A stretch of 28,129 nucleotides of DNA from Candidatus Lithacetigena glycinireducens (GCA_018725485.1 QLUP01000001.1:1-28129); one strand, 5' to 3'. Positions 1 through 23,022 are shown, counted from the first letter of the stretch. Notes: a model not told the origin generated them from the letters alone. Numbers and translations: made by a program.

Positions 1-624
1 GATAAAGATCCTAACTGGTGGAATGTTTATGGTCTTGGCAGACTCGGGAAAATTGAGGGTTTAGTTTATCCTTATTTCTCCCAATGCAAAGAACTGCCTA
101 TGGGTGATTATATCTACGGATTAGATTGGGGCTTTAGTAATGATTATACCGCTCTGGTAAAAGTATTAGTGGATGGCAATAATTTATATTGTCAGGAATT
201 ATTATATGAAGTGGGTATGACCAATCAAGACATAGCTAATAGAATGATGGAGTTAGGTATTAGAAAGCATTACGATGAAATCTGGGCCGATTCTGCCGAG
301 CCAAAAAGCATTGAGGAGATTTATCGGTATGGCTTTAATATTAAAGGAGCGCCTAAGGGACCTGGAAGCGTAGAATACAGGCACCAGAAAATAAGGCAGT
401 ATAAATTGCAGGTTACCGAGGATAGTCTTAACTTAATTAAATCACTGCGGAACTTTCGCTACATTGAAGACAAGAATGGAAAACTGACCGATAAGACTAC
501 TCATAATTATTCACATTTGCCTGACGCCTTAGGTTATGCTATGATAGGAAGAGAAGGGGTAAGAAAAGATATGGAAAGGGTTATAGTATATAATAGCATG
601 GAGGAGATAGATTTTGACTTTTAG
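1..624 (+). CDS. terL: Terminase large subunit, C-terminal nuclease part (PBSX/Terminase_3-like), 5'-truncated by the window
   Basis: Frame 1 is open from base 1 (DKDPNWWNVYGLGRLGKIEG...), so the ORF-track start at 100 is internal. Motifs YGLDWGFSND, IWADSAEPKSI and HLPDALGYA are typical of the terminase RNase H-like domain. Lies directly upstream of the portal. Confidence 0.9.
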   Translation, partial: DKDPNWWNVYGLGRLGKIEGLVYPYFSQCKELPMGDYIYGLDWGFSNDYTALVKVLVDGNNLYCQELLYEVGMTNQDIANRMMELGIRKHYDEIWADSAEPKSIEEIYRYGFNIKGAPKGPGSVEYRHQKIRQYKLQVTEDSLNLIKSLRNFRYIEDKNGKLTDKTTHNYSHLPDALGYAMIGREGVRKDMERVIVYNSMEEIDFDF

Positions 625-10152: not shown

Positions 10153-11799
10153 TTGGCAATCTCGATAGGAGACGCTCTGTTAAAGCTTGGCTTAGATAAG
10201 ACTGCTTTTGACAGTGATATGAAAAACTTAGATGCCCAAGTGAAAACCTCCATGAAGAAACTCCAGACCGCCTTTAAAGTTGGTGGAGCAGCCATAACTG
10301 CTATGGGTGCCGCTGGGCTTAAATTCGTGTCTGATGCTCGAGTAATGAATGCTCAGCTTGGTCAAACTGCTCTGATCCTCGGTATAACTACCAAAGAAAT
10401 ACGAGATTTGGCTCTGGCTACTGCCGATGTGTCCTTCCCCATCAAGAGTGTTGCTGACACTTTCGAACTACTAAGCAGAGCAGGGGTAAAAAATACTGAG
10501 GACATGAAGGCTAACGCTAAAGCCTTCGATGCCCTGGCTGACGCTACAGGCTCAAGTGCTGAGGTAATAGCTGGCATGCTCATCCCAGCTTTCAGGGTAT
10601 TCGGGAAAGAACTACCAAAAACCTCTAAAGAACTGGATATATTTACCTGGTTAAGCAGAGAGACTACAGTTAATTTAGGTGATTTTAGCGGCATGTTAAC
10701 TCGTCTGGCTCCCCAAATGATCGAAGCAGGAATAAGCATGGAAGACGCTGTTATTGCCTTAGCTGCTTTGGAGGAGAGAGGTATTACCGGAAGAGCGGCT
10801 ATGCGGGAACTAAATGAAGCGATTGGAGAATCAGTTGAGAGAAATATAAGTCTCCATCAGGCTTTAGGCATAACTACCGAGGAGGTTGGCAGGTATAATC
10901 AGCAGATAAGTGAATCTGTAGGAATCACCGATAAATATGCGGCAATAGCTGATAAGCAGTTTGGGATTATGGACAAGTTAAAGCATGCATGGAGTGAACT
11001 TACTTTTGCCGCAGGCTCTTTTTTAACTCCCTTAGAGCCTATCTTAACTGCTATGACTGCCCTGGGGCCAGTGATGATGTTTTTCGGAACAGCTACAGCT
11101 GCAGCTACCATAAAGACCATAAAACATACCGCAGCTTTGATAGCAAAGAAGGTGGCTCTGACAGCCAGCACTGTGGCCATCAAGGCAGCTACTGCTGCTC
11201 AATGGCTCTGGAATGCGGCTATGACTGCTAATCCTATCGGAATAGTTATAGCGGGGATAGCAGCCCTAATAGCAGCTATTATCTTGATAGCCAAGAACTG
11301 GGATTGGATCAGAGAGAAGACTATAAATGTTTGGGAAAGGCTGATGATTTTCTTCCGGGGGATAGTTGAACGGATAGGCGGTATTTTTGCAGGGTTAAAG
11401 GAGATGATATTAAGTCCATTTCGGGCTGCCTTAAGTGGAATAGAGGCAGGGATAAATTGGTTAATTAGACAGTTAAATAAAATCAGTTTTAAGGTACCTG
11501 ATTGGGTACCTCTTCTCGGCGGGAAGACTTTTGGATTAAACATCCCTGAAATTACCTTACCTAAATTTGCCCATGGTGGTTTAATTACCGAACCTACTCT
11601 TCTCTATGGATTGCGTTCTAAGAGACCCTATGCTGTTGCTGGTGAATCTGGGCCAGAAAGAATCTCTCCTATAACAAACTATGCAGGTGCAACTTACATA
11701 ACTCATCTGCACATAGGCACTTTAATTGCTGATGAAGCAGGTTTAGAAAAATTGAGATGGGAACTTCAGAGGATTGACAAAAAGGTAGGGCTGAGATGA
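10153..11799 (+). CDS. Tail tape measure protein
   Basis: 548 aa, TTG start with SD AGGAGGT; Ala/Gly-rich helical; MTANPIGIVIAGIAALIAAII..KNWD and PKFAHGG motifs. Confidence 0.9.
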   Translation: MAISIGDALLKLGLDKTAFDSDMKNLDAQVKTSMKKLQTAFKVGGAAITAMGAAGLKFVSDARVMNAQLGQTALILGITTKEIRDLALATADVSFPIKSVADTFELLSRAGVKNTEDMKANAKAFDALADATGSSAEVIAGMLIPAFRVFGKELPKTSKELDIFTWLSRETTVNLGDFSGMLTRLAPQMIEAGISMEDAVIALAALEERGITGRAAMRELNEAIGESVERNISLHQALGITTEEVGRYNQQISESVGITDKYAAIADKQFGIMDKLKHAWSELTFAAGSFLTPLEPILTAMTALGPVMMFFGTATAAATIKTIKHTAALIAKKVALTASTVAIKAATAAQWLWNAAMTANPIGIVIAGIAALIAAIILIAKNWDWIREKTINVWERLMIFFRGIVERIGGIFAGLKEMILSPFRAALSGIEAGINWLIRQLNKISFKVPDWVPLLGGKTFGLNIPEITLPKFAHGGLITEPTLLYGLRSKRPYAVAGESGPERISPITNYAGATYITHLHIGTLIADEAGLEKLRWELQRIDKKVGLR

Positions 11800-14455: not shown

Positions 14456-14914
14456 ATGAGTGTTTGGTCAACAGTATCCTGGGTTTTTAGGGATGATATA
14501 ACCTCTGCTAAACTGCAGGCAATGAGTAATAATGATTTATACCTGAGAGACAGGCTTCGTTTCCATTATGTAGGCGATGAGACTGAAAGAAGCGTGGCTG
14601 GAACGACGGAAACAGAGATCAAGTTTTTTAGGATGATAAAACATCCTAATGCTTATAACCTGAGGTTACTGAGGTTTTTTGCCGAGTTGAGAGTATCTGC
14701 TGCCTCTACTGGGACTTTAAGGATATACTTAGATGGTGCTGCTTCACCTTCTTTAACTTTAACTACTATAGCCACGGCTTTTGAATTACTAAATGGTTCT
14801 ATAGATGTTTCTGCCTGGGCCGATGGAGTACATACGGTATCTATCCGGTTGTTAAACTCAACAACCGCAACTACCATTAACAGACTTTTGGAATGTTATG
14901 TTGAGGTAGTGTAA
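14456..14914 (+). CDS. Minor tail structural protein
   Basis: N-terminal WSTVSW..RDDITSAKLQAMSNNDLYL resembles fibre-anchoring segments; beta-sandwich-like C-terminus; TAATG coupling to the first Cys-rich ORF. Confidence 0.55.
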   Translation: MSVWSTVSWVFRDDITSAKLQAMSNNDLYLRDRLRFHYVGDETERSVAGTTETEIKFFRMIKHPNAYNLRLLRFFAELRVSAASTGTLRIYLDGAASPSLTLTTIATAFELLNGSIDVSAWADGVHTVSIRLLNSTTATTINRLLECYVEVV

Positions 14915-15363
14915 TGAGAATAAGGGAAAAGGCAATAAGAACTACACAACTCAGAGACATAGAATGTGCTACCTGTGAGGTTTGCCAGGCCTGTCAGAAT
15001 TGTAATGTCTGTCAGTCAGCTTTTGGTACCTGTGGTATCTGTATTACCTGCCAATCTTGTAATACCTGTCAGTCCAGGATAACTTGCGTCTTATGTTTTA
15101 GTTGCGAGAATTGTGTTACCTGCCAAATGGAAGCCAGTTGTGGGGTATGTTTTGCCTGTCAATTATGTGTTACGGCTTGCCAGAATAATTTTGGTACCTG
15201 TTCCAGCTGCGTTACCTGCCAGATCTGTAATGTTTGCCAGATCTGCAATGTCTGCCAATCTTGTAATACCTGTCAGTTGAATTTTGGGAGCTGCGGAACT
15301 TGTGTAGTCTGCCAAGTTTGTGCAGCTTGCCAAATTTGTAATATCTGCCAGAGCGGGATATAA
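14914..15363 (+). CDS. Cys-rich repeat protein A (37 Cys in 149 aa, CxxC register), candidate radical SAM substrate
   Basis: Short basic leader MRIREKAIRTTQLRDIE, then six blocks of CxxCxxC repeats separated by short linkers; SD GAGGT; adjacent to the rSAM/SPASM gene. Confidence 0.85.
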   Translation: MRIREKAIRTTQLRDIECATCEVCQACQNCNVCQSAFGTCGICITCQSCNTCQSRITCVLCFSCENCVTCQMEASCGVCFACQLCVTACQNNFGTCSSCVTCQICNVCQICNVCQSCNTCQLNFGSCGTCVVCQVCAACQICNICQSGI

Positions 15364-15669
15364 ATGAGTACTAATATTAGACTTTGTATAACCTGCCAGA
15401 TATGTAATTTATGCCAATCCTGTAATACCTGTCAGGCTTGTGTAGCTGCTCAGCCGAGCTGTGCTACCTGTGAGGTGTGTAATGTTTGCCAGAGTTGTGT
15501 TACCTGTCAGCAGTGTAATGCAGTTTGTTTTAGCTGCAACAGTTGCCAGAGCTGTATAACTTCTCAAACCTGTGGGACGTGCGATAAGTGCTTCACCTGT
15601 CAGAATTGTTTTTCTGACCAGGGTACACCTCCAGTTTGTGCTGCCTGCCAGAGTTGTAATACCTGTCAG
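15049..15669 (+). repeat. Four dispersed 24-bp repeats encoding CQSCNTCQ
   Basis: TGCCAATCTTGTAATACCTGTCAG identical at 15049-15072 and 15253-15276, one mismatch at 15412-15435, variant at 15646-15669. Confidence 0.9.
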
Positions 15670-15780
15670 GTGTGTTTTGGCTGCCAGAATTGTAACATTA
15701 GCCAGGCCTGTAGCTGCCAGGTTTGTGCAGCCTGCCAGGTTTGTGCAGCCTGCCAGAATTGTTTTATTAGCCCATTTTAA
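15364..15780 (+). CDS. Cys-rich repeat protein B (37 Cys in 138 aa), candidate radical SAM substrate
   Basis: Same CxxCQx repeat as protein A; starts immediately after its TAA, in the same frame. Confidence 0.85.
   Translation: MSTNIRLCITCQICNLCQSCNTCQACVAAQPSCATCEVCNVCQSCVTCQQCNAVCFSCNSCQSCITSQTCGTCDKCFTCQNCFSDQGTPPVCAACQSCNTCQVCFGCQNCNISQACSCQVCAACQVCAACQNCFISPF
15714..15756 (+). repeat. Perfect 18-bp tandem repeat (about 2.4 copies) encoding CQVCAA
   Basis: CTGCCAGGTTTGTGCAGC x2 followed by CTGCCAG. Confidence 0.9.
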
Positions 15781-15791
15781 GAGGAGGAAGT

Positions 15792-17102
15792 ATGGAAGAG
15801 TGTGAAAATTGTTTTACCTGTGAGAACTGCTACACCGACCAGAGCTGCGTAGAATGTCAGGTATGTGTTGAATGCCAGAGTTGTTATACCGCTGAATCTT
15901 GCGATAAATGTGAATCTTGTTTTACCTGCGAAACGGTGGCTCAACCTCACGGTTTGGTACAAAAAACCTGTCAGATTAAGCCTAAGATATATACCAACTC
16001 TTTAACCATCTTTGCTTCTAACGGCTGTAACTTAGATTGTGAGTACTGTTTTTTTAGGGGAACTAAAGACAAAGACAATCTTACCTATGAAGTTGGTAAA
16101 GAGGCGGTAGATTTTCTCTTCTTAGTTTCCGATAGCACTAAACCTGTTTCTATCTGGTTTTTTGGTGGTGAACCCTTCCTTAACTACGAGGTTATGCAGA
16201 AGGTTATTCTTTATGGGAAGCAGAAGGCTAAAAAATATGACAGGCAGTTGTCTTTTGGGGCTACTACCAATATGACCTTACTTAACCAGGAGAGAATAGA
16301 TTTCTGGCATGAGGAGGGTGGTAATCTATTAATTTCTCTTGATGGTTGCGAGGAGGGGCATAATTTCTACAGGAAAGATATATATGGAGAAGGCTCTTTT
16401 GCTACTGCCTGGAACTGGACTGAGAAATGGCTAAAACTAAAGCCTGAAACTTCTATCAGGTTTACCGTAAACCCGGAAACCTTACTTTACCAGATAAAAG
16501 GGCTTAAGTTCTTAGTAGAGTGGGGAGTAAATAATATCGCTATGTGTCCTAACCAGGAATGCGACTGGAGTGAGGAGGATTATAAACTTTATAAAGAAAA
16601 TCTTCTGGAAATAGCTGAGGTGTTTATAGCGAAGTTACGAGAAGGCAGAAGGCTTCTAATCAAACCTTTTGAAGACGGCTTTTCACTACATAAAATAAAA
16701 GGTAGGATGGGAGGAACTCGTTGCGGCACAGGGGGTTATGATGTGGGGGTTGGTGTTGATGGGAAATTATACCGCTGTCATCGTTTTGTTTTAAGAGGTG
16801 AAGCCGGGGAAATAGGCAATGTCTGGGACGGCTTTTCGGAGAAGAGGAAAGAGACCTTGAATTATGATATAAATAAGATACAGGGTTATAATTGCGAGAA
16901 GTGTATGATAAAAGCACGCTGTAATGGATACTGTATAGCCGTAAATCAGGATAGAAAAGGTGATTTATGGATTGTGCCTGAGGAAGTATGTAAGCAGGAA
17001 ATTATACATCAGGAAGTAGCGGATTTTATCCTGAATACTTTGAGAAGTGAGGAAAAACTTTATAATAAAGTGATGGGAAATGAAAATAAAAGTTGTAGAT
17101 GA
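15792..17102 (+). CDS. Radical SAM/SPASM-domain enzyme with N-terminal Cys-rich repeat tract
   Basis: CNLDCEYC (CxxxCxxC), FFGGEPFLN, ATTN and ISLDG core motifs; complete seven-Cys SPASM pattern C-x12-G-x4-C ... C-x2-C-x5-C-x3-C-x18-C; SD GAGGAGG. Confidence 0.93.
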   Translation: MEECENCFTCENCYTDQSCVECQVCVECQSCYTAESCDKCESCFTCETVAQPHGLVQKTCQIKPKIYTNSLTIFASNGCNLDCEYCFFRGTKDKDNLTYEVGKEAVDFLFLVSDSTKPVSIWFFGGEPFLNYEVMQKVILYGKQKAKKYDRQLSFGATTNMTLLNQERIDFWHEEGGNLLISLDGCEEGHNFYRKDIYGEGSFATAWNWTEKWLKLKPETSIRFTVNPETLLYQIKGLKFLVEWGVNNIAMCPNQECDWSEEDYKLYKENLLEIAEVFIAKLREGRRLLIKPFEDGFSLHKIKGRMGGTRCGTGGYDVGVGVDGKLYRCHRFVLRGEAGEIGNVWDGFSEKRKETLNYDINKIQGYNCEKCMIKARCNGYCIAVNQDRKGDLWIVPEEVCKQEIIHQEVADFILNTLRSEEKLYNKVMGNENKSCR

Positions 17103-17646
17103 TAACATAGAAAAAGATAAAGAATTAGTAAGTATCAGCAGGGGATTGGAAGATGCTGGAAACATAGTCGCTCTTAATGGATTAGGGAAAATAGATAATT
17201 CTATGATAGAGTTTCCTCCTCCTACTTCTCCCAGAGGTACTATTATTTTACTTCACGCTGATGAAACTGATGGGACTGAATTTTCTAACACTGCAGATGA
17301 AAATATCCTTAAAGGATGGATTTTGCCTGCTAATAATTATGCTAGAATTATTGTGGAGGGGGAAATTAGATATAGAATGCCAAATTTAATTCAGGCTACT
17401 ACCCATACGGTTACCGTCAGGATAAGAGAGGGTGGGATAGGAGGAATAATCAGGAAGACCTTTTTAAGCGGGGTGTGGAGTAGCGTAACTACTGTGGTAC
17501 CCCAACATTTTATCTTTTCGCCTAAAACTTCGCTTGCTGGTGGGCAGGGTTCTCCCACTTCCTTAGTTATTACAGGCCAATTAGGTCTGGCACACTCTGA
17601 CTTTACCATTATGGGGTGTTCTATGCGAGTTTATGGAGTAGTATAG
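17080..17646 (+). CDS. Minor tail/fibre structural protein
   Basis: DAGNIVALNGLGKIDNSM segment recalls fibre shaft motifs; beta-sandwich-like C-terminus; overlaps the rSAM 3' end by 23 nt. Confidence 0.55.
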   Translation: MKIKVVDDNIEKDKELVSISRGLEDAGNIVALNGLGKIDNSMIEFPPPTSPRGTIILLHADETDGTEFSNTADENILKGWILPANNYARIIVEGEIRYRMPNLIQATTHTVTVRIREGGIGGIIRKTFLSGVWSSVTTVVPQHFIFSPKTSLAGGQGSPTSLVITGQLGLAHSDFTIMGCSMRVYGVV

Positions 17647-17656
17647 GAGTGCAGAT

Positions 17657-18025
17657 ATGGAATTACCTCTAAAAATGGTAAAAGGAGATTCCTTCAGAAG
17701 GAAGATTACTTTTTTTGATGGGACTACCAGAAGAGTGGTTGATATATCCAACTGGACCCTTTTCTTTACTGTAAAGAGACCTGAATATTTGGATAAGGAC
17801 GATTCTGTGGCTGAAATTAGAAAGACTGAGACTATAAGGGCAGGACAAGGAACTTCTGGAATCTGGATACTGGAAATCTTACCTGCAGATACAACTACAG
17901 TCAAAGATGTCCAGCCAGGGCTATATAAGTATGATGTTCAATATAGAAGACCCGATGGAACAATAAAGACCGTAACTGTGAGTGACTTTGAAATAGCACC
18001 GCAGGTAACTGTGAGGACAACCTAA
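17657..18025 (+). CDS. BppU N-terminal-like baseplate/fibre-attachment protein
   Basis: KGDSF...F.D....VDIS.WT.FFTVK...G.YKYDVQ....G.IKTV...FEI pattern typical of the BppU/DUF2479-like Ig fold. Confidence 0.7.
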   Translation: MELPLKMVKGDSFRRKITFFDGTTRRVVDISNWTLFFTVKRPEYLDKDDSVAEIRKTETIRAGQGTSGIWILEILPADTTTVKDVQPGLYKYDVQYRRPDGTIKTVTVSDFEIAPQVTVRTT

Positions 18026-18210
18026 TGCCTGAAGACATAAGAATAACTATCACTGAAATTGAACCTGTAAATGTAATTATTCAGGATTACATAGTCCAAA
18101 ATATTATTGATTTGTTAGATGGTCCTAGAATATACATAAATGGTAGGCTTTTAATGTCTACGGCCTCAGGTTGGGTTTGGGTAGATGAGATTGACGGCGG
18201 AACATTTTAA
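18025..18210 (+). CDS. Small structural protein ending in DGGTF
   Basis: 61 aa, TAATG-coupled; C-terminal IDGGTF motif common in fibre-associated proteins. Confidence 0.5.
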   Translation: MPEDIRITITEIEPVNVIIQDYIVQNIIDLLDGPRIYINGRLLMSTASGWVWVDEIDGGTF

Positions 18211-18232
18211 ATTTGGAAAAAGGAGGTAAGAA

Positions 18233-19537
18233 TTGTCTATTAGAATAAGAGTTAGAAGGGGTCCAAAAGCCAGACTACCAGTTCTTGGAGCTGGCGAGTT
18301 TGGTTTTACTACAGATACTAAGGAAGTATTTATCGGCGACGGCACTGCTAATCACGAGTTAGAGATGACTGCACGAAAAGGTGCGCCTTCTGGTTATGCT
18401 GCTCTAAATGCTGCTTCTTTAGTAGTGCAGAATCCCGCTAGTGCTACTGTAACTGCCGCACCAAATAGCATTGTTTTACGGGATGCTTTTGGTAGGTCCA
18501 AAATAGCAGCTCCCGCTGCTGCTGATGATATTGCTCAAAGAGCTCAAGCGGATGCGGTCCAAACTAATCTTGATATTCATTCTAGTTTAACTATAGCTCA
18601 TGGTGCTGTTTCTGCTGCTATGGCAGGCCGAATAGTAGTTCGGGATGCGAATGCCAGAGCTTCTTTTGCCGCACCCTCAGCAGCAGGCGATGTCGCTATC
18701 CTCTCAACAGTAACTGACCACGCAGCAGCAACTACAGGAGTCCATGGAGTAGGAACTTCTGTGGTCGAAAGTGTAGCAGGTGCTCAGAGTAAAGTAGACA
18801 TACACGGAGCATTAACAGCTCCGCATGGTGCCACTGATGCTGCTATTGCAGGTAGATTAGTCTTAAGAGACGCAGCAGGTCGAGCTAAATTTGCTGCTCC
18901 TGCTGCTGCTGGGGATGCTTTAATAAGAGGTGCGAGGCTAACTGCAGCAGAGATGCCTGATGGACCAATTGGTCTGGTTTTGACAGGTAGAGGACCTGGG
19001 GTTAATCCTGTTTATGAGGCTGCTGATTACCCTAGAAACCTAAAACCTGCTATAGTAAGATGGGCACTACCTGGGTGGTCTGGTGGATCTCGTGATGGTG
19101 TATGCACTGCTAATGTGATTTATTATATTCCCATTTTTGTTTCGGAAACTACTACTTATATAAGAGTTGGACTTTGGGTTCTTGTTGCATCTGCAGGGAC
19201 TATAGATATAAGAATATTTAGTTGGAGAGATGGAGTTCCTCACTCTTTAATCTTAAGCGCAGGAACAGTAGATACAGGAACTACAGGGCCAAAAGAAATA
19301 ATTATTTCTCAAGTATTAACTAGAGGTTATTATTTTTTAGCTTATAGATGTACAGGTACACCTATTTGTGTGGGTTTTAGTGATGATGCTCGAACACCTG
19401 CAGCAATTATGAGAAAACTAGGATGGGGAACTACCGAAAGTGTGTTAACTGTTATGGCTGCATATGCTGATCCTGCTCCTGCTCCAACTGATATTGCTAG
19501 AAATATGTTTGCCGTTCTTGTTTTAAGAGAAAACTAA
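18233..19537 (+). CDS. Tail fibre / receptor-binding protein
   Basis: TTG start with SD AGGAGGT; N-terminal IRVRRG..LPVL..GEFGFTTDTKEVFIGDG (Mtd_N/hyaluronidase-like anchor); three VxRDA.GR...AAP.AA.D shaft repeats; beta-rich C-domain. Confidence 0.8.
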   Translation: MSIRIRVRRGPKARLPVLGAGEFGFTTDTKEVFIGDGTANHELEMTARKGAPSGYAALNAASLVVQNPASATVTAAPNSIVLRDAFGRSKIAAPAAADDIAQRAQADAVQTNLDIHSSLTIAHGAVSAAMAGRIVVRDANARASFAAPSAAGDVAILSTVTDHAAATTGVHGVGTSVVESVAGAQSKVDIHGALTAPHGATDAAIAGRLVLRDAAGRAKFAAPAAAGDALIRGARLTAAEMPDGPIGLVLTGRGPGVNPVYEAADYPRNLKPAIVRWALPGWSGGSRDGVCTANVIYYIPIFVSETTTYIRVGLWVLVASAGTIDIRIFSWRDGVPHSLILSAGTVDTGTTGPKEIIISQVLTRGYYFLAYRCTGTPICVGFSDDARTPAAIMRKLGWGTTESVLTVMAAYADPAPAPTDIARNMFAVLVLREN

Positions 19538-19547
19538 CAGGAGGCGT

Positions 19548-20261
19548 ATGATGGCAGAGCAGGGAATTTACCAGATTAAGAATATTTTGAATGAGAAAAT
19601 ATATATTGGAAGTGCGATTAATATTAAGGCACGGTGGGGAATGCATCTTCATCTTCTAAAGAAGGGTTTACATCATAATAAACATTTACAAAACGCCTTT
19701 AATAAATACGGGGAAAATTCATTCAAATATAGTATTCTGGAAATTGTCCAAACACCCGAAGGATTGATCTTATTAGAACAACATTATATAGATTTACTCC
19801 AGCCCGAATATAATAAACGACTGTTTGCTAAAAACAATTTAGGGGTAAGACATACTGAAGAAGTAAAACAAAAAATGGGTAAGGAACGCATAGGGAAACC
19901 TCTCTCGGAGGAACATAGAAAAAAATTAAGTGAGGCCCGAAAGGAATTTATGACTAATCCCGAACACAGAAAGAAGATAAGTGAACTTAATAAAGGAAGA
20001 ATATGCACTAAAGAAACAAGGGAAAAATTAAGTGAGGCTACTAAAAGGACTTGGGCTAATCCTGAAAACAAATTAAATATGCGTAAAAATACAAAGAGAA
20101 AATCATATGACTCTCGTGTTCCTCCTTCAAGGGAGACAAAGCAGAAAATAAGTGAGGGAGTAAAACGATATTATGCTAATCCAGAAAATAGGCAAAAGCA
20201 AAGTAAAGATATGAAACGATATTATGAACAGCGAAATCAAGAAATTAGAGAAGTGAGGTGA
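19548..20261 (+). CDS. Free-standing GIY-YIG homing endonuclease with NUMOD3-like repeats
   Basis: GIYQIKNILNEKIYIGSAINIKARW..H...L....H.NKHLQNAFNKYG..SF...ILE, followed by H/TEE.K.K(I/L)SE repeats. Confidence 0.9.
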   Translation: MMAEQGIYQIKNILNEKIYIGSAINIKARWGMHLHLLKKGLHHNKHLQNAFNKYGENSFKYSILEIVQTPEGLILLEQHYIDLLQPEYNKRLFAKNNLGVRHTEEVKQKMGKERIGKPLSEEHRKKLSEARKEFMTNPEHRKKISELNKGRICTKETREKLSEATKRTWANPENKLNMRKNTKRKSYDSRVPPSRETKQKISEGVKRYYANPENRQKQSKDMKRYYEQRNQEIREVR

Positions 20262-22413: not shown

Positions 22414-23022
22414 ATGAAAATAGCACGATTATTTGAGGAGAAAGCAGAACCATTGGCAAGCCCGAAATTGCTTACATGTTCCGAAATAAATGTAATTAGG
22501 GCTTGCAATCTAAACAGGCGGTGGCATAGTCGTCTGCCAGAAATCCACTGGTCAAATGTGGTAAGAAGTAAGCACTATATTTGTTACGGAGCGTTCTATA
22601 ATAACGTGGTATATGCTGTTGCTATTTGGTCGTCTCCTGTGGCTGCTAATAGGTTCAAGAACGGAGACACACTTCTTGAACTAAGGCGCATGGCAATATC
22701 GCCTGAAGCTCCGAAGTATACGGCAACATGGATGTTGAGTAGGATGATAAAAGATATTAAAAAACGCTTTCCCAAAATAACAAGGCTAATAAGTTATCAG
22801 GATACAGAGGTGCACAAAGGGACGATTTATGCAGCTGCAAATTGGACAAAATGCTCAGAAACTAAATATATAGATTGGACAACAAGAAAGCGCAAGAGAA
22901 GCGAAGCACAGTCAAAAGCAAATAAAGTGCGATGGGAATACTGTATTGACTGTGCATCTAAAAAGGGATATGTCCCTAAACCCGGAACCATCCGTAGAGA
23001 ATCAAAAAAGCCCATTTCCTGA
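22414..23022 (+). CDS. mom: Mom-like adenine modification enzyme (GNAT fold)
   Basis: WHSRLP, LELRRMAI...APKYTATWMLS, and LISYQDTEVHKGTIYAAANW match the Mom family pattern ELxR...(I/V)SYxD...HxGxIYxAxNW. Confidence 0.75.
   Translation: MKIARLFEEKAEPLASPKLLTCSEINVIRACNLNRRWHSRLPEIHWSNVVRSKHYICYGAFYNNVVYAVAIWSSPVAANRFKNGDTLLELRRMAISPEAPKYTATWMLSRMIKDIKKRFPKITRLISYQDTEVHKGTIYAAANWTKCSETKYIDWTTRKRKRSEAQSKANKVRWEYCIDCASKKGYVPKPGTIRRESKKPIS

Follow-up and report, generated by a model that had tools for sequence, protein, structure and literature searches.

The stretch of DNA analyzed here (the window) is an entire 28,129-bp contig binned with Candidatus Lithacetigena glycinireducens (QLUP01000001.1), and represents a siphovirus-like phage in which every gene lies on the plus strand. 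Its tail module contains a cassette of two small, extremely cysteine-rich proteins, here called A and B, followed by a radical S-adenosylmethionine (SAM) enzyme with a SPASM domain, and preceded directly by a stand-alone fibre-tip protein (Table 1). From the sequences, we consider it likely that A and B are modified with thioethers by this enzyme. The cassette is packed tightly between tail-tip and fibre genes, as the original prediction from the DNA alone had stated: there is a 1-nt overlap (TAATG) at position 14914, no gap between the A and B genes, 11 nt carrying the sequence GAGGAGG 5' of the enzyme ATG, and a 23-nt overlap between the enzyme open reading frame (ORF) and the next one. Given these junctions, and since promoter-like and terminator-like sites show no excess in the window, it is reasonable to suppose that the cassette is co-transcribed with the tail genes.

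After a 17-residue N-terminus (MRIREKAIRTTQLRDIE), protein A is made of C-[Q/N/E]-x triplets arranged in blocks with xFG(T/S) linkers between them; protein B, a paralogue with 44% identity to A, begins with the short N-terminus MSTNIRL. Two coupled ORFs with 37 Cys each and about 25-27% Cys in a CxxC register had been predicted, and this description held: Cys accounts for 24.8% of the 149 residues of A and 26.8% of the 138 residues of B, and the spacing from one Cys to the next is exactly 3 in 30/36 cases in each protein (60/72 together). The repeat period in the DNA, as given by Tandem Repeats Finder, is 18 nt, corresponding to a hexapeptide unit such as C-Q-x-C-N-x. The bin (1.24 Mb) has 1784 stop-to-stop ORFs of 100 aa or longer, with a median Cys content of 1.1%; A and B rank first and second among them, the highest value after them being 15%. 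Behind a short conserved x-I-R box, the triplets of both proteins have the composition C-[Q/N/D/E]-[T/S/V/A/I]; Asp, Glu, Asn or Gln stands at position +1 of about 61-62% of the Cys, followed by T, V, S, A or I, and at position +4 of 64%, mostly as Gln and Asn. As the Cys counts of A, B and their relatives are odd as often as even (37, 37, 25, 17, 19, 41 and so on), a fully disulfide-paired fold is disfavoured.

Profile searches matched A and B to no structural family, and in Pfam at E<=10 neither they nor their relatives gave a target-family match, the copy searched apparently being without newer models (PF27846 and others). No protein homologues were retrieved with ORF B as the query, probably owing to filtering for composition or to genes that had not been called, and tblastn of ORF B against phages was likewise empty; ORF B gave a weak, partial match to phrog_15341 (E=2.7e-7) and ORF A gave none. 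Two candidate interpretations were discarded. Beta-helix-like structural neighbours of an Atlas model of A were set aside because the model was poor (predicted local distance difference test score, pLDDT, 0.49), and the idea that A and B are non-coding repeat artefacts was ruled out, since the Cys frame is kept in the loci of the nearest relatives of the enzyme, which are only 31-37% identical to it.

The third gene encodes an intact radical SAM enzyme with a seven-Cys SPASM domain, in agreement with the original prediction. Its CxxxCxxC motif reads CNLDCEYC (C79/C83/C86, aa 79-86), and it belongs to the radical SAM superfamily by PF04055 (53.8 bits, cut-off 29.5) and PF13353 (33.4 bits, cut-off 22). 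Seven Cys (C311, C329, C368, C371, C377, C381 and C400), together with G324, are invariant in an alignment of 17 sequences. The SPASM domain was defined by the pattern Cx9-15Gx4C ... CxxCx5Cx3C ... C, with two auxiliary [4Fe-4S] clusters; the spacing in the enzyme is Cx17C...CxxCx5Cx3C...C, and the region aligns to the SPASM domain of CteB. As PF13186 did not reach E<=0.01, SPASM membership rests on the motif and this alignment.

The best-scoring family was PapB (NF047865; 247.2 bits, E=2.5e-73, profile positions 3-326/330, cut-off 340), followed by the SCIFF maturase TIGR03974 (156.2 bits, cut-off 425), nif11 (152 bits), the QhpD profile TIGR03906 (132 bits, cut-off 453), CcpM (115 bits), the CXXX-repeat maturase TIGR04115 (110.8 bits, cut-off 350) and the CrpC-type TIGR04463 (47.8 bits, cut-off 525). 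The nearest solved structure by sequence is CteB (5WGG, E=1.9e-33), aligned over the radical SAM core and the SPASM domain. The profile searches are consistent with the SPASM-type maturase that had been proposed, with the thioether-forming PapB and CteB as its nearest kin and all curated family cut-offs missed; judged by these scores, the enzyme is placed among the thioether-forming SPASM maturases but in no named family.

The alignment to CteB begins with query residue 65 opposite CteB residue 93, so that the recognition element (RRE) of CteB for peptides made on the ribosome and modified after translation (RiPPs) is without counterpart in the phage enzyme. Residues 1-47 form instead a third Cys-triplet tract, which the earlier reading of this DNA did not include and which is added here. 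Because a strong GAGGAGG precedes the ATG at 15792, this Cys-rich N-terminus belongs to the enzyme protein; an internal start codon was ruled out, no Shine-Dalgarno sequence being found before the internal GTG. Among the loci compared (numbered with the prefix L), L172 encodes the counterpart of this tract as a 73-aa ORF of its own, L001 and L008 have a shorter version, and L005 and L049 lack it. In L172, an intein-like insert also splits the radical SAM gene directly 3' of the CxxxCxxC motif (L172:6473-7429); the insert contains a Hint module and a LAGLIDADG_3 domain (E=2.4e-18), and another intein-bearing gene lies upstream on this contig (L172:508-2130).

Table 1. Features of the cassette, of its surroundings in the window and of related fibre proteins.
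Feature	Position	Strand	Basis or remarks
Stand-alone fibre-tip (receptor-binding knob) protein, 152 aa, TNF-like jelly-roll fold	14456..14914	+	homology, AlphaFold2, Foldseek
Cys-triplet protein A	14914..15363	+	
Cys-triplet protein B	15364..15780	+	
Shine-Dalgarno GAGGAGG, 4 nt 5' of enzyme ATG	15781..15787	+	sequence reading
Radical SAM/SPASM enzyme, 436 aa, PapB/CteB-like putative thioether (ranthionine) synthase	15792..17102	+	NF047865, TIGR03974, CteB alignment, motifs
Acidic, E-rich Cys-triplet tract with 13 Cys, enzyme residues 1-47, in the place of the RRE	15792..15932	+	
SPASM region, aa 311-400, seven conserved auxiliary-cluster Cys	16722..16991	+	invariant columns; aligns to CteB SPASM domain
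Fibre genes (188 aa, 122 aa, 61 aa, 434-aa Mtd_N fibre)	17080..19537	+	PF18454 Mtd_N E=1.9e-11; phrog_1084, tail-fibre PHROGs
Mtd_N fibre, 434 aa, last of the downstream fibre genes	18233-19537	+	matches phrog_25864
Terminase C-terminus	1-624	+	start of gene order
Portal, head-morphogenesis, protease/scaffold and major capsid genes	after terminase	+	gene order
Immunoglobulin (Ig)-domain major tail protein, then tape measure	tape measure 10153-11799	+	
Tail-tip protein, 113 aa	between tape measure and 769-aa protein	+	
Tail-tip protein, 769 aa	12138-14447	+	3' of tape measure gene; C-terminal part matches phrog_25864
GIY-YIG homing endonuclease, NUMOD-like repeats	19548-20261	+	phrog_314, E=1.6e-35
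Holin (Holin_4_1), amidase (Amidase_2), RecT	3' of homing endonuclease	+	family matches
Mom-like DNA modification protein, early or replication region	22414-23022	+	phrog_1384, E=3e-23
Heptad-Cys fibre proteins with Peptidase_S74 in other loci	L064:8668-9372, L067:9784-10539, L070:8629-9369		profile match

We compared the cassette with known thioether systems. PapB/PapA (freyrasin), the best-scoring family, has in common with it the seven-Cys SPASM domain and repeated Cys with an acceptor four residues downstream. PapB bridges join Cys-S to Asp C-beta or Glu C-gamma (NF047865 family criterion) in the register C-X3-acceptor, i.e. +4 (PMC9413430), and to the C-X3-D/E pattern of PapA corresponds C-X3-[Q/N/D/E] at 64% of the Cys in A and B (PMC9413430). 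PapA is however a peptide with six separate rings, whereas A and B are proteins of 138-149 aa with 37 Cys and overlapping triplets, whose likely acceptors are mostly Gln/Asn and whose tail-module context is without export or protease genes. CteB, which acts on CteA (SCIFF, thermocellin), has an N-terminal RRE of ~90 residues where the phage enzymes have a Cys-triplet tract or nothing, and the neighbour of a SCIFF maturase is a 45-residue peptide with six Cys, against the 138-149-aa proteins next to the phage enzyme. The bin has its own canonical SCIFF-like peptide of 45 aa, whose gene immediately precedes that of an ScfB-type maturase of 450 aa with an extended N-terminus (L086, contig C170, 1423-2915, minus strand); this cellular maturase and the phage enzyme are 32% identical.

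The closest precedent is CrpC/CrpA of Methanococcus voltae (PMC13692751, September 2026), the only experiment we found with a SPASM radical SAM enzyme installing ranthionine bridges on a Cys-rich protein, in that case a 28.8-kDa protein with repeated C-X-X-Q/D. Cys-rich protein substrate, paralogous partner (CrpB) and seven-Cys SPASM domain are all similar (PMC13692751); the differences are that CrpC has an RRE, and CrpA a 47-residue leader-like domain, a 17-residue repeat and far sparser Cys (PMC13692751), and that CrpC/CrpA belongs to archaeal cells and is suspected of a metal-related role, phage not being mentioned in the paper (PMC13692751). In two reports, the seven SPASM Cys of CrpC and CteB-type enzymes are given as a 3+4 ligation leaving an open iron on auxiliary cluster I (PMC13692751; PMC10177961), to which the substrate Cys binds in PapB/CteB-type enzymes (PMC10177961, PMC13692751); the seven invariant Cys of the phage enzyme agree with this ligation pattern.

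Other systems are less alike. The CXXX-repeat system (TIGR04115; targets TIGR04114/TIGR04117) also has long Cys-periodic targets adjoining a SPASM maturase, and its Cys-every-fourth register is seen in neighbouring enzyme clades of viral and Bathyarchaeia-like contigs; the register in the window is however three, not four, and the target models gave no match to A or B. Thioethers between Cys and Asp/Glu are formed by the SPASM enzyme QhpD as well, within a protein subunit and not a secreted peptide, but its substrate QhpC is an enzyme subunit with three bridges, unrelated in architecture and context. Phage proteins with a Cys at every third residue also occur in a family with a W-x-D-x-N-G-N-x-W cap followed by C-x-[D/N/G] triplets (L227:348-998(-), L315, L390, L188, L229, L260), which is probably the PHROG 15341 family; it differs from A and B by this cap and by the polar residue, which stands at +2 and not at +1.

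Viral relatives were obtained by an alignment-based scan of IMG/VR, while a single-protein IMG/VR scan with the enzyme returned nothing; the 7.5-kb region had no match at the DNA level in phage records, where a protein search gave only relatives of <=30% identity. The module of tip domain, two CxxC ORFs and radical SAM gene was found in at least six other independent phage loci. Two small CxxC ORFs abut the enzyme upstream in all five closest ones (L001, a 144-kb contig; L005/L006; L008; L049), the same ORFs are present in L172/L173 (reached via the tip-domain protein) and L349 (via a DNA motif), and in L168 the first is followed by the contig end. More widely, a Cys-dense ORF lies near 37/48 non-redundant viral enzymes versus 13/80 cellular loci. 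Adjacent Cys-repeat ORFs and tail context, which the original prediction expected of homologous enzymes, are therefore recurrent (5/5 closest loci). Across these loci the Cys-triplet proteins have an N-terminal box in common (MSxNIR, ..NIRDVEC) and come in a long-N-terminus and a short-N-terminus type: A is the long paralogue (..NIRDVEC) of L005, L049, L168 and L172, and the MSxNIR start of B recurs in L001, L172 and L349. The two Cys-triplet genes of L172 (L172:5376-6098) are publicly called as an 86-aa ORF in the wrong frame, which suggests that such genes are probably under-represented in protein databases. A search with a Cys-triplet DNA pattern was dominated by simple tandem repeats, and among the matches listed only L349, L332 and L336 had a radical SAM gene; the cap-plus-CxxC family lacking one came to light in this search as well.

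The maximum-likelihood tree placed the window enzyme in a clade (support 96/97) with the loci of register three and two Bathyarchaeia-like enzymes, the neighbours of the latter being large proteins with C-terminal CQTGCEVS repeats; in other clades the enzymes are accompanied by C-terminal tails with a Cys at every fourth residue, or by CNCNYCT heptads. The Cys register (2, 3 or 4) changes 14 times on the enzyme tree versus a mean of 26.2 in shuffled data, a value that 0/200 shuffles matched; relatedness inflates such tests, and we take the result that register follows the enzyme tree as support and not as proof. CQTGCEVS-tract proteins adjoin the closest cellular relatives of the phage enzyme (L002:5820-7862, L004:3019-4509, L090, L095, L097, L099, L100, L143), and on Bathyarchaeia-type contigs such proteins have 400-680 aa, with lectin-like N-terminal parts and long C-terminal Cys-every-fourth tracts.

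Other clades carry the Cys tract fused to structural proteins of 600-1474 aa, and in L064, L067 and L070 it stands directly before a Peptidase_S74 chaperone domain (24-28 bits, cut-off 22). This intramolecular chaperone domain typifies trimeric phage fibres and spikes. The CTCNCNY heptad fibre proteins, also present in L066 and L068, form tandem arrays of as many as four paralogues in a locus, and a distant SPASM enzyme lies 1.5-3.5 kb upstream of them.

These data bear on the possibility that A and B are left unstapled and have an intracellular role, either in chaperoning fibre assembly or in binding metal or iron-sulfur clusters, the enzyme carrying out another reaction or needing them just to donate clusters. 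Tail-fibre genes are often followed by one for an assembly chaperone, 25% Cys in CxxC arrays resembles metal-binding proteins, and all maturase cut-offs were missed by the enzyme; CrpA, too, is suspected by its authors of a metal-related role (PMC13692751). Yet the Cys register co-varies with the enzyme clade and the enzyme abuts the Cys ORFs in all its relatives, as for an enzyme and its substrate, and the regular Q/N/D/E beside Cys matches the acceptor positions of known thioether systems (PMC13692751, PMC9413430). We therefore regard this alternative as quite unlikely, all the more so as the selection on non-Cys positions described below is unexpected for a chaperone or a metal store.

The tip domain of ~115 residues encoded upstream of A is an ORF of its own in the window and the C-terminus of 258-919-aa fibres in the relatives, to which the 152-aa protein is 45% (L049), 34% (L005) and 26% (L001) identical. 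Among 1.8 billion entries, 212 representatives were found at E<=1e-3, in proteins of 115-1588 aa and always at the extreme C-terminus. An AlphaFold2 model of the 152-aa protein (pLDDT 90.6) gave Foldseek matches to the Pgp3 C-domain, the tumour necrosis factor (TNF)-like lectin BC2L-C, the lambda J tip and the phi812 spike knob, with TM scores of ~0.5-0.65; the modelled domain thus resembles trimeric TNF-like lectin or knob domains and phage tail-tip domains. With the exception of L008, all register-3 loci have this knob as the gene or domain immediately 5' of the Cys-triplet ORFs, and its hidden Markov model matched register-3 loci only (0 of the other ~80 radical SAM loci).

The original prediction left it undecided whether a virion component or a secreted RiPP-like molecule is produced. 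Of what is generally expected of a RiPP cluster (a precursor with leader and core, a leader protease, export or immunity genes), A and B have a short conserved N-terminal x-I-R box; the window ORFs searched included no peptidase or protease, transporter or exporter, or immunity gene, and no GG-type cleavage motif was seen. Given the tip domain upstream, the Cys tracts on fibres in related systems and the lack of a protease or exporter in the window, the evidence leans to a fibre-associated product, to which we would give about an even chance. A different view is that A and B are modified by the enzyme and released at lysis as a RiPP-like effector (a bacteriocin aimed at competitors, a signal or an agent that affects neighbouring cells), which would make an exporter unneeded. 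Small separate ORFs with a short conserved N-terminal box are like leader-core peptides, the enzyme is nearest to RiPP maturases, and in L005 and L049 the cassette stands directly 5' of the holin and lysin genes, moron-like at the end of the late operon. Proteins of 138-149 aa with 37 Cys are however far above the size of known ranthipeptide cores, the missing leader protease, cleavage motif and immunity gene speak against it as well, and this view neither explains why one particular fibre-tip domain is strictly adjacent in seven independent loci nor leads one to expect the Cys tracts on fibre proteins of related systems; release as an effector is thus in our opinion unlikely.

Selection was estimated from one close pair, L005 versus L006, whose enzymes differ by 1.6%. 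In the Cys proteins of this pair 34/34 Cys are kept while 16/114 non-Cys residues have changed, and the ratio of nonsynonymous to synonymous substitution rates (dN/dS) is 1.69 for the non-Cys codons, versus 0.12 for the enzyme, 0.17 for the fibre and 0.27 for a neighbouring protein; the nonsynonymous to synonymous counts are 19:6 versus 18:31 (Fisher p=0.003). An invariant Cys frame with fast-changing surface positions would fit a molecule that meets a variable partner, although diversifying selection on a fixed Cys scaffold fits toxins too.

Taken as a whole, the reading we favour, that A and B receive numerous thioether bridges from the enzyme and become part of the fibre tip, comes a little short of an even chance on the sequence evidence; the acceptor residue, the thioether chemistry, the virion location and the adsorption role are all inferred. 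A and B would be produced in the cytoplasm as late proteins and processed by the co-encoded PapB/CteB-like enzyme. By analogy with PapB/CteB, a 5'-deoxyadenosyl radical would take H from a side-chain carbon of an amide or acid residue near each Cys, and the Cys thiolate, on the open iron of auxiliary cluster I, would form the thioether (ranthionine) bridge. Repeated along the tract, such bridging would give a densely stapled protein resisting reduction and proteases. The enzyme, being without an RRE, may recognize the repeat or the x-I-R box directly, perhaps with help from the Cys-triplet tract at its own N-terminus. Once stapled, the two proteins would join the TNF-like knob encoded just upstream, their fast-evolving non-Cys positions facing the host surface. 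It is a more tentative proposal, possible though below the former, that small thioether-stapled proteins with dozens of bridges form part of the receptor-binding tip in several phage lineages, with non-Cys positions evolving fast as they track host receptors and RRE-less enzymes using their own substrate-like tract.

The bridges could also run between chains, joining A to B, to the N-terminal tract of the enzyme or to the fibre, so that the tail tip would be locked covalently once assembled, with no binding surface being formed. The count of three Cys-triplet segments in a locus (besides A and B, the N-terminal part of the enzyme or, in L172, a further ORF), the conservation of A and B as a pair across loci and the trimeric fibre context of the S74-bearing relatives would all suit such an arrangement. 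On the other hand L005 and L049 have no third segment, the rapid change at the x positions points to an exposed surface more than to a buried joint, and known SPASM thioether synthases bridge intramolecularly over 2-4 residues (PMC9413430, PMC13692751), so that we hold interchain locking to be improbable.

Several observations weigh against the favoured reading of a stapled, tip-associated pair. PapB needs a carboxylate acceptor, while A and B carry mostly Gln/Asn. As every named maturase cut-off was missed, the chemistry of the enzyme may differ (sactionine, formylglycine or other). AlphaFold2 gave no fold for protein A from an 11-row alignment (pLDDT 37), which leaves a rod or knob without a structural model, and the selection estimate comes from a single pair and 25 substitutions. 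Within the clade of the window enzyme the Cys proteins are always separate small ORFs and never fibre fusions, so they could be released products, or assembly factors or chaperones. A relative of the tip domain occurs in L170 without the cassette. Finally, the cap-plus-CxxC proteins have no radical SAM gene in the stretches examined, and so Cys triplets alone do not imply modification.

The phage identity of the contig is borne by the terminase, portal, major capsid protein, tape measure, Mtd_N fibre, holin and amidase. It was binned with a genome of 1.24 Mb in 204 contigs (83% complete), and its tetranucleotide usage agrees with the remainder of the bin (r=0.95). We take the host to be a Gram-positive anaerobe only on the evidence of Holin_4_1, Amidase_2 and the bin's SCIFF system. 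A C-terminal domain is common to the 769-aa tail-tip protein and the 434-aa Mtd_N fibre; since both match phrog_25864, a putative binding domain would be present twice in the phage, besides the TNF-like knob of the 152-aa ORF. The GIY-YIG homing endonuclease sits between the last fibre gene and the holin, and the GC content there falls to ~34%.

No paper was found in the literature linking phage, tail fibre, virion or Cys-repeat proteins with radical SAM, SPASM or ranthipeptide enzymes, in line with the original remark that no radical SAM maturation system for phage structural proteins is known to have been characterized. Should the more tentative proposal of stapled receptor-binding tips in several phage lineages hold, virions would be matured by a post-translational route of a new class, and the scaffold would bind in a way of a new kind. 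If the favoured reading is true, radical SAM thioether chemistry would reach beyond small secreted peptides and a few cellular proteins, to parts of an infectious particle, and an enzymatic, iron-sulfur-dependent step would be added to phage tail assembly. It would also account for very Cys-rich phage ORFs, which are often missed by gene callers, and would offer RiPP enzymologists a natural RRE-less enzyme handling ~37 sites per substrate. The architecture of invariant Cys and variable x positions would be of interest for the engineering of stable binding scaffolds and for the prediction of host range.

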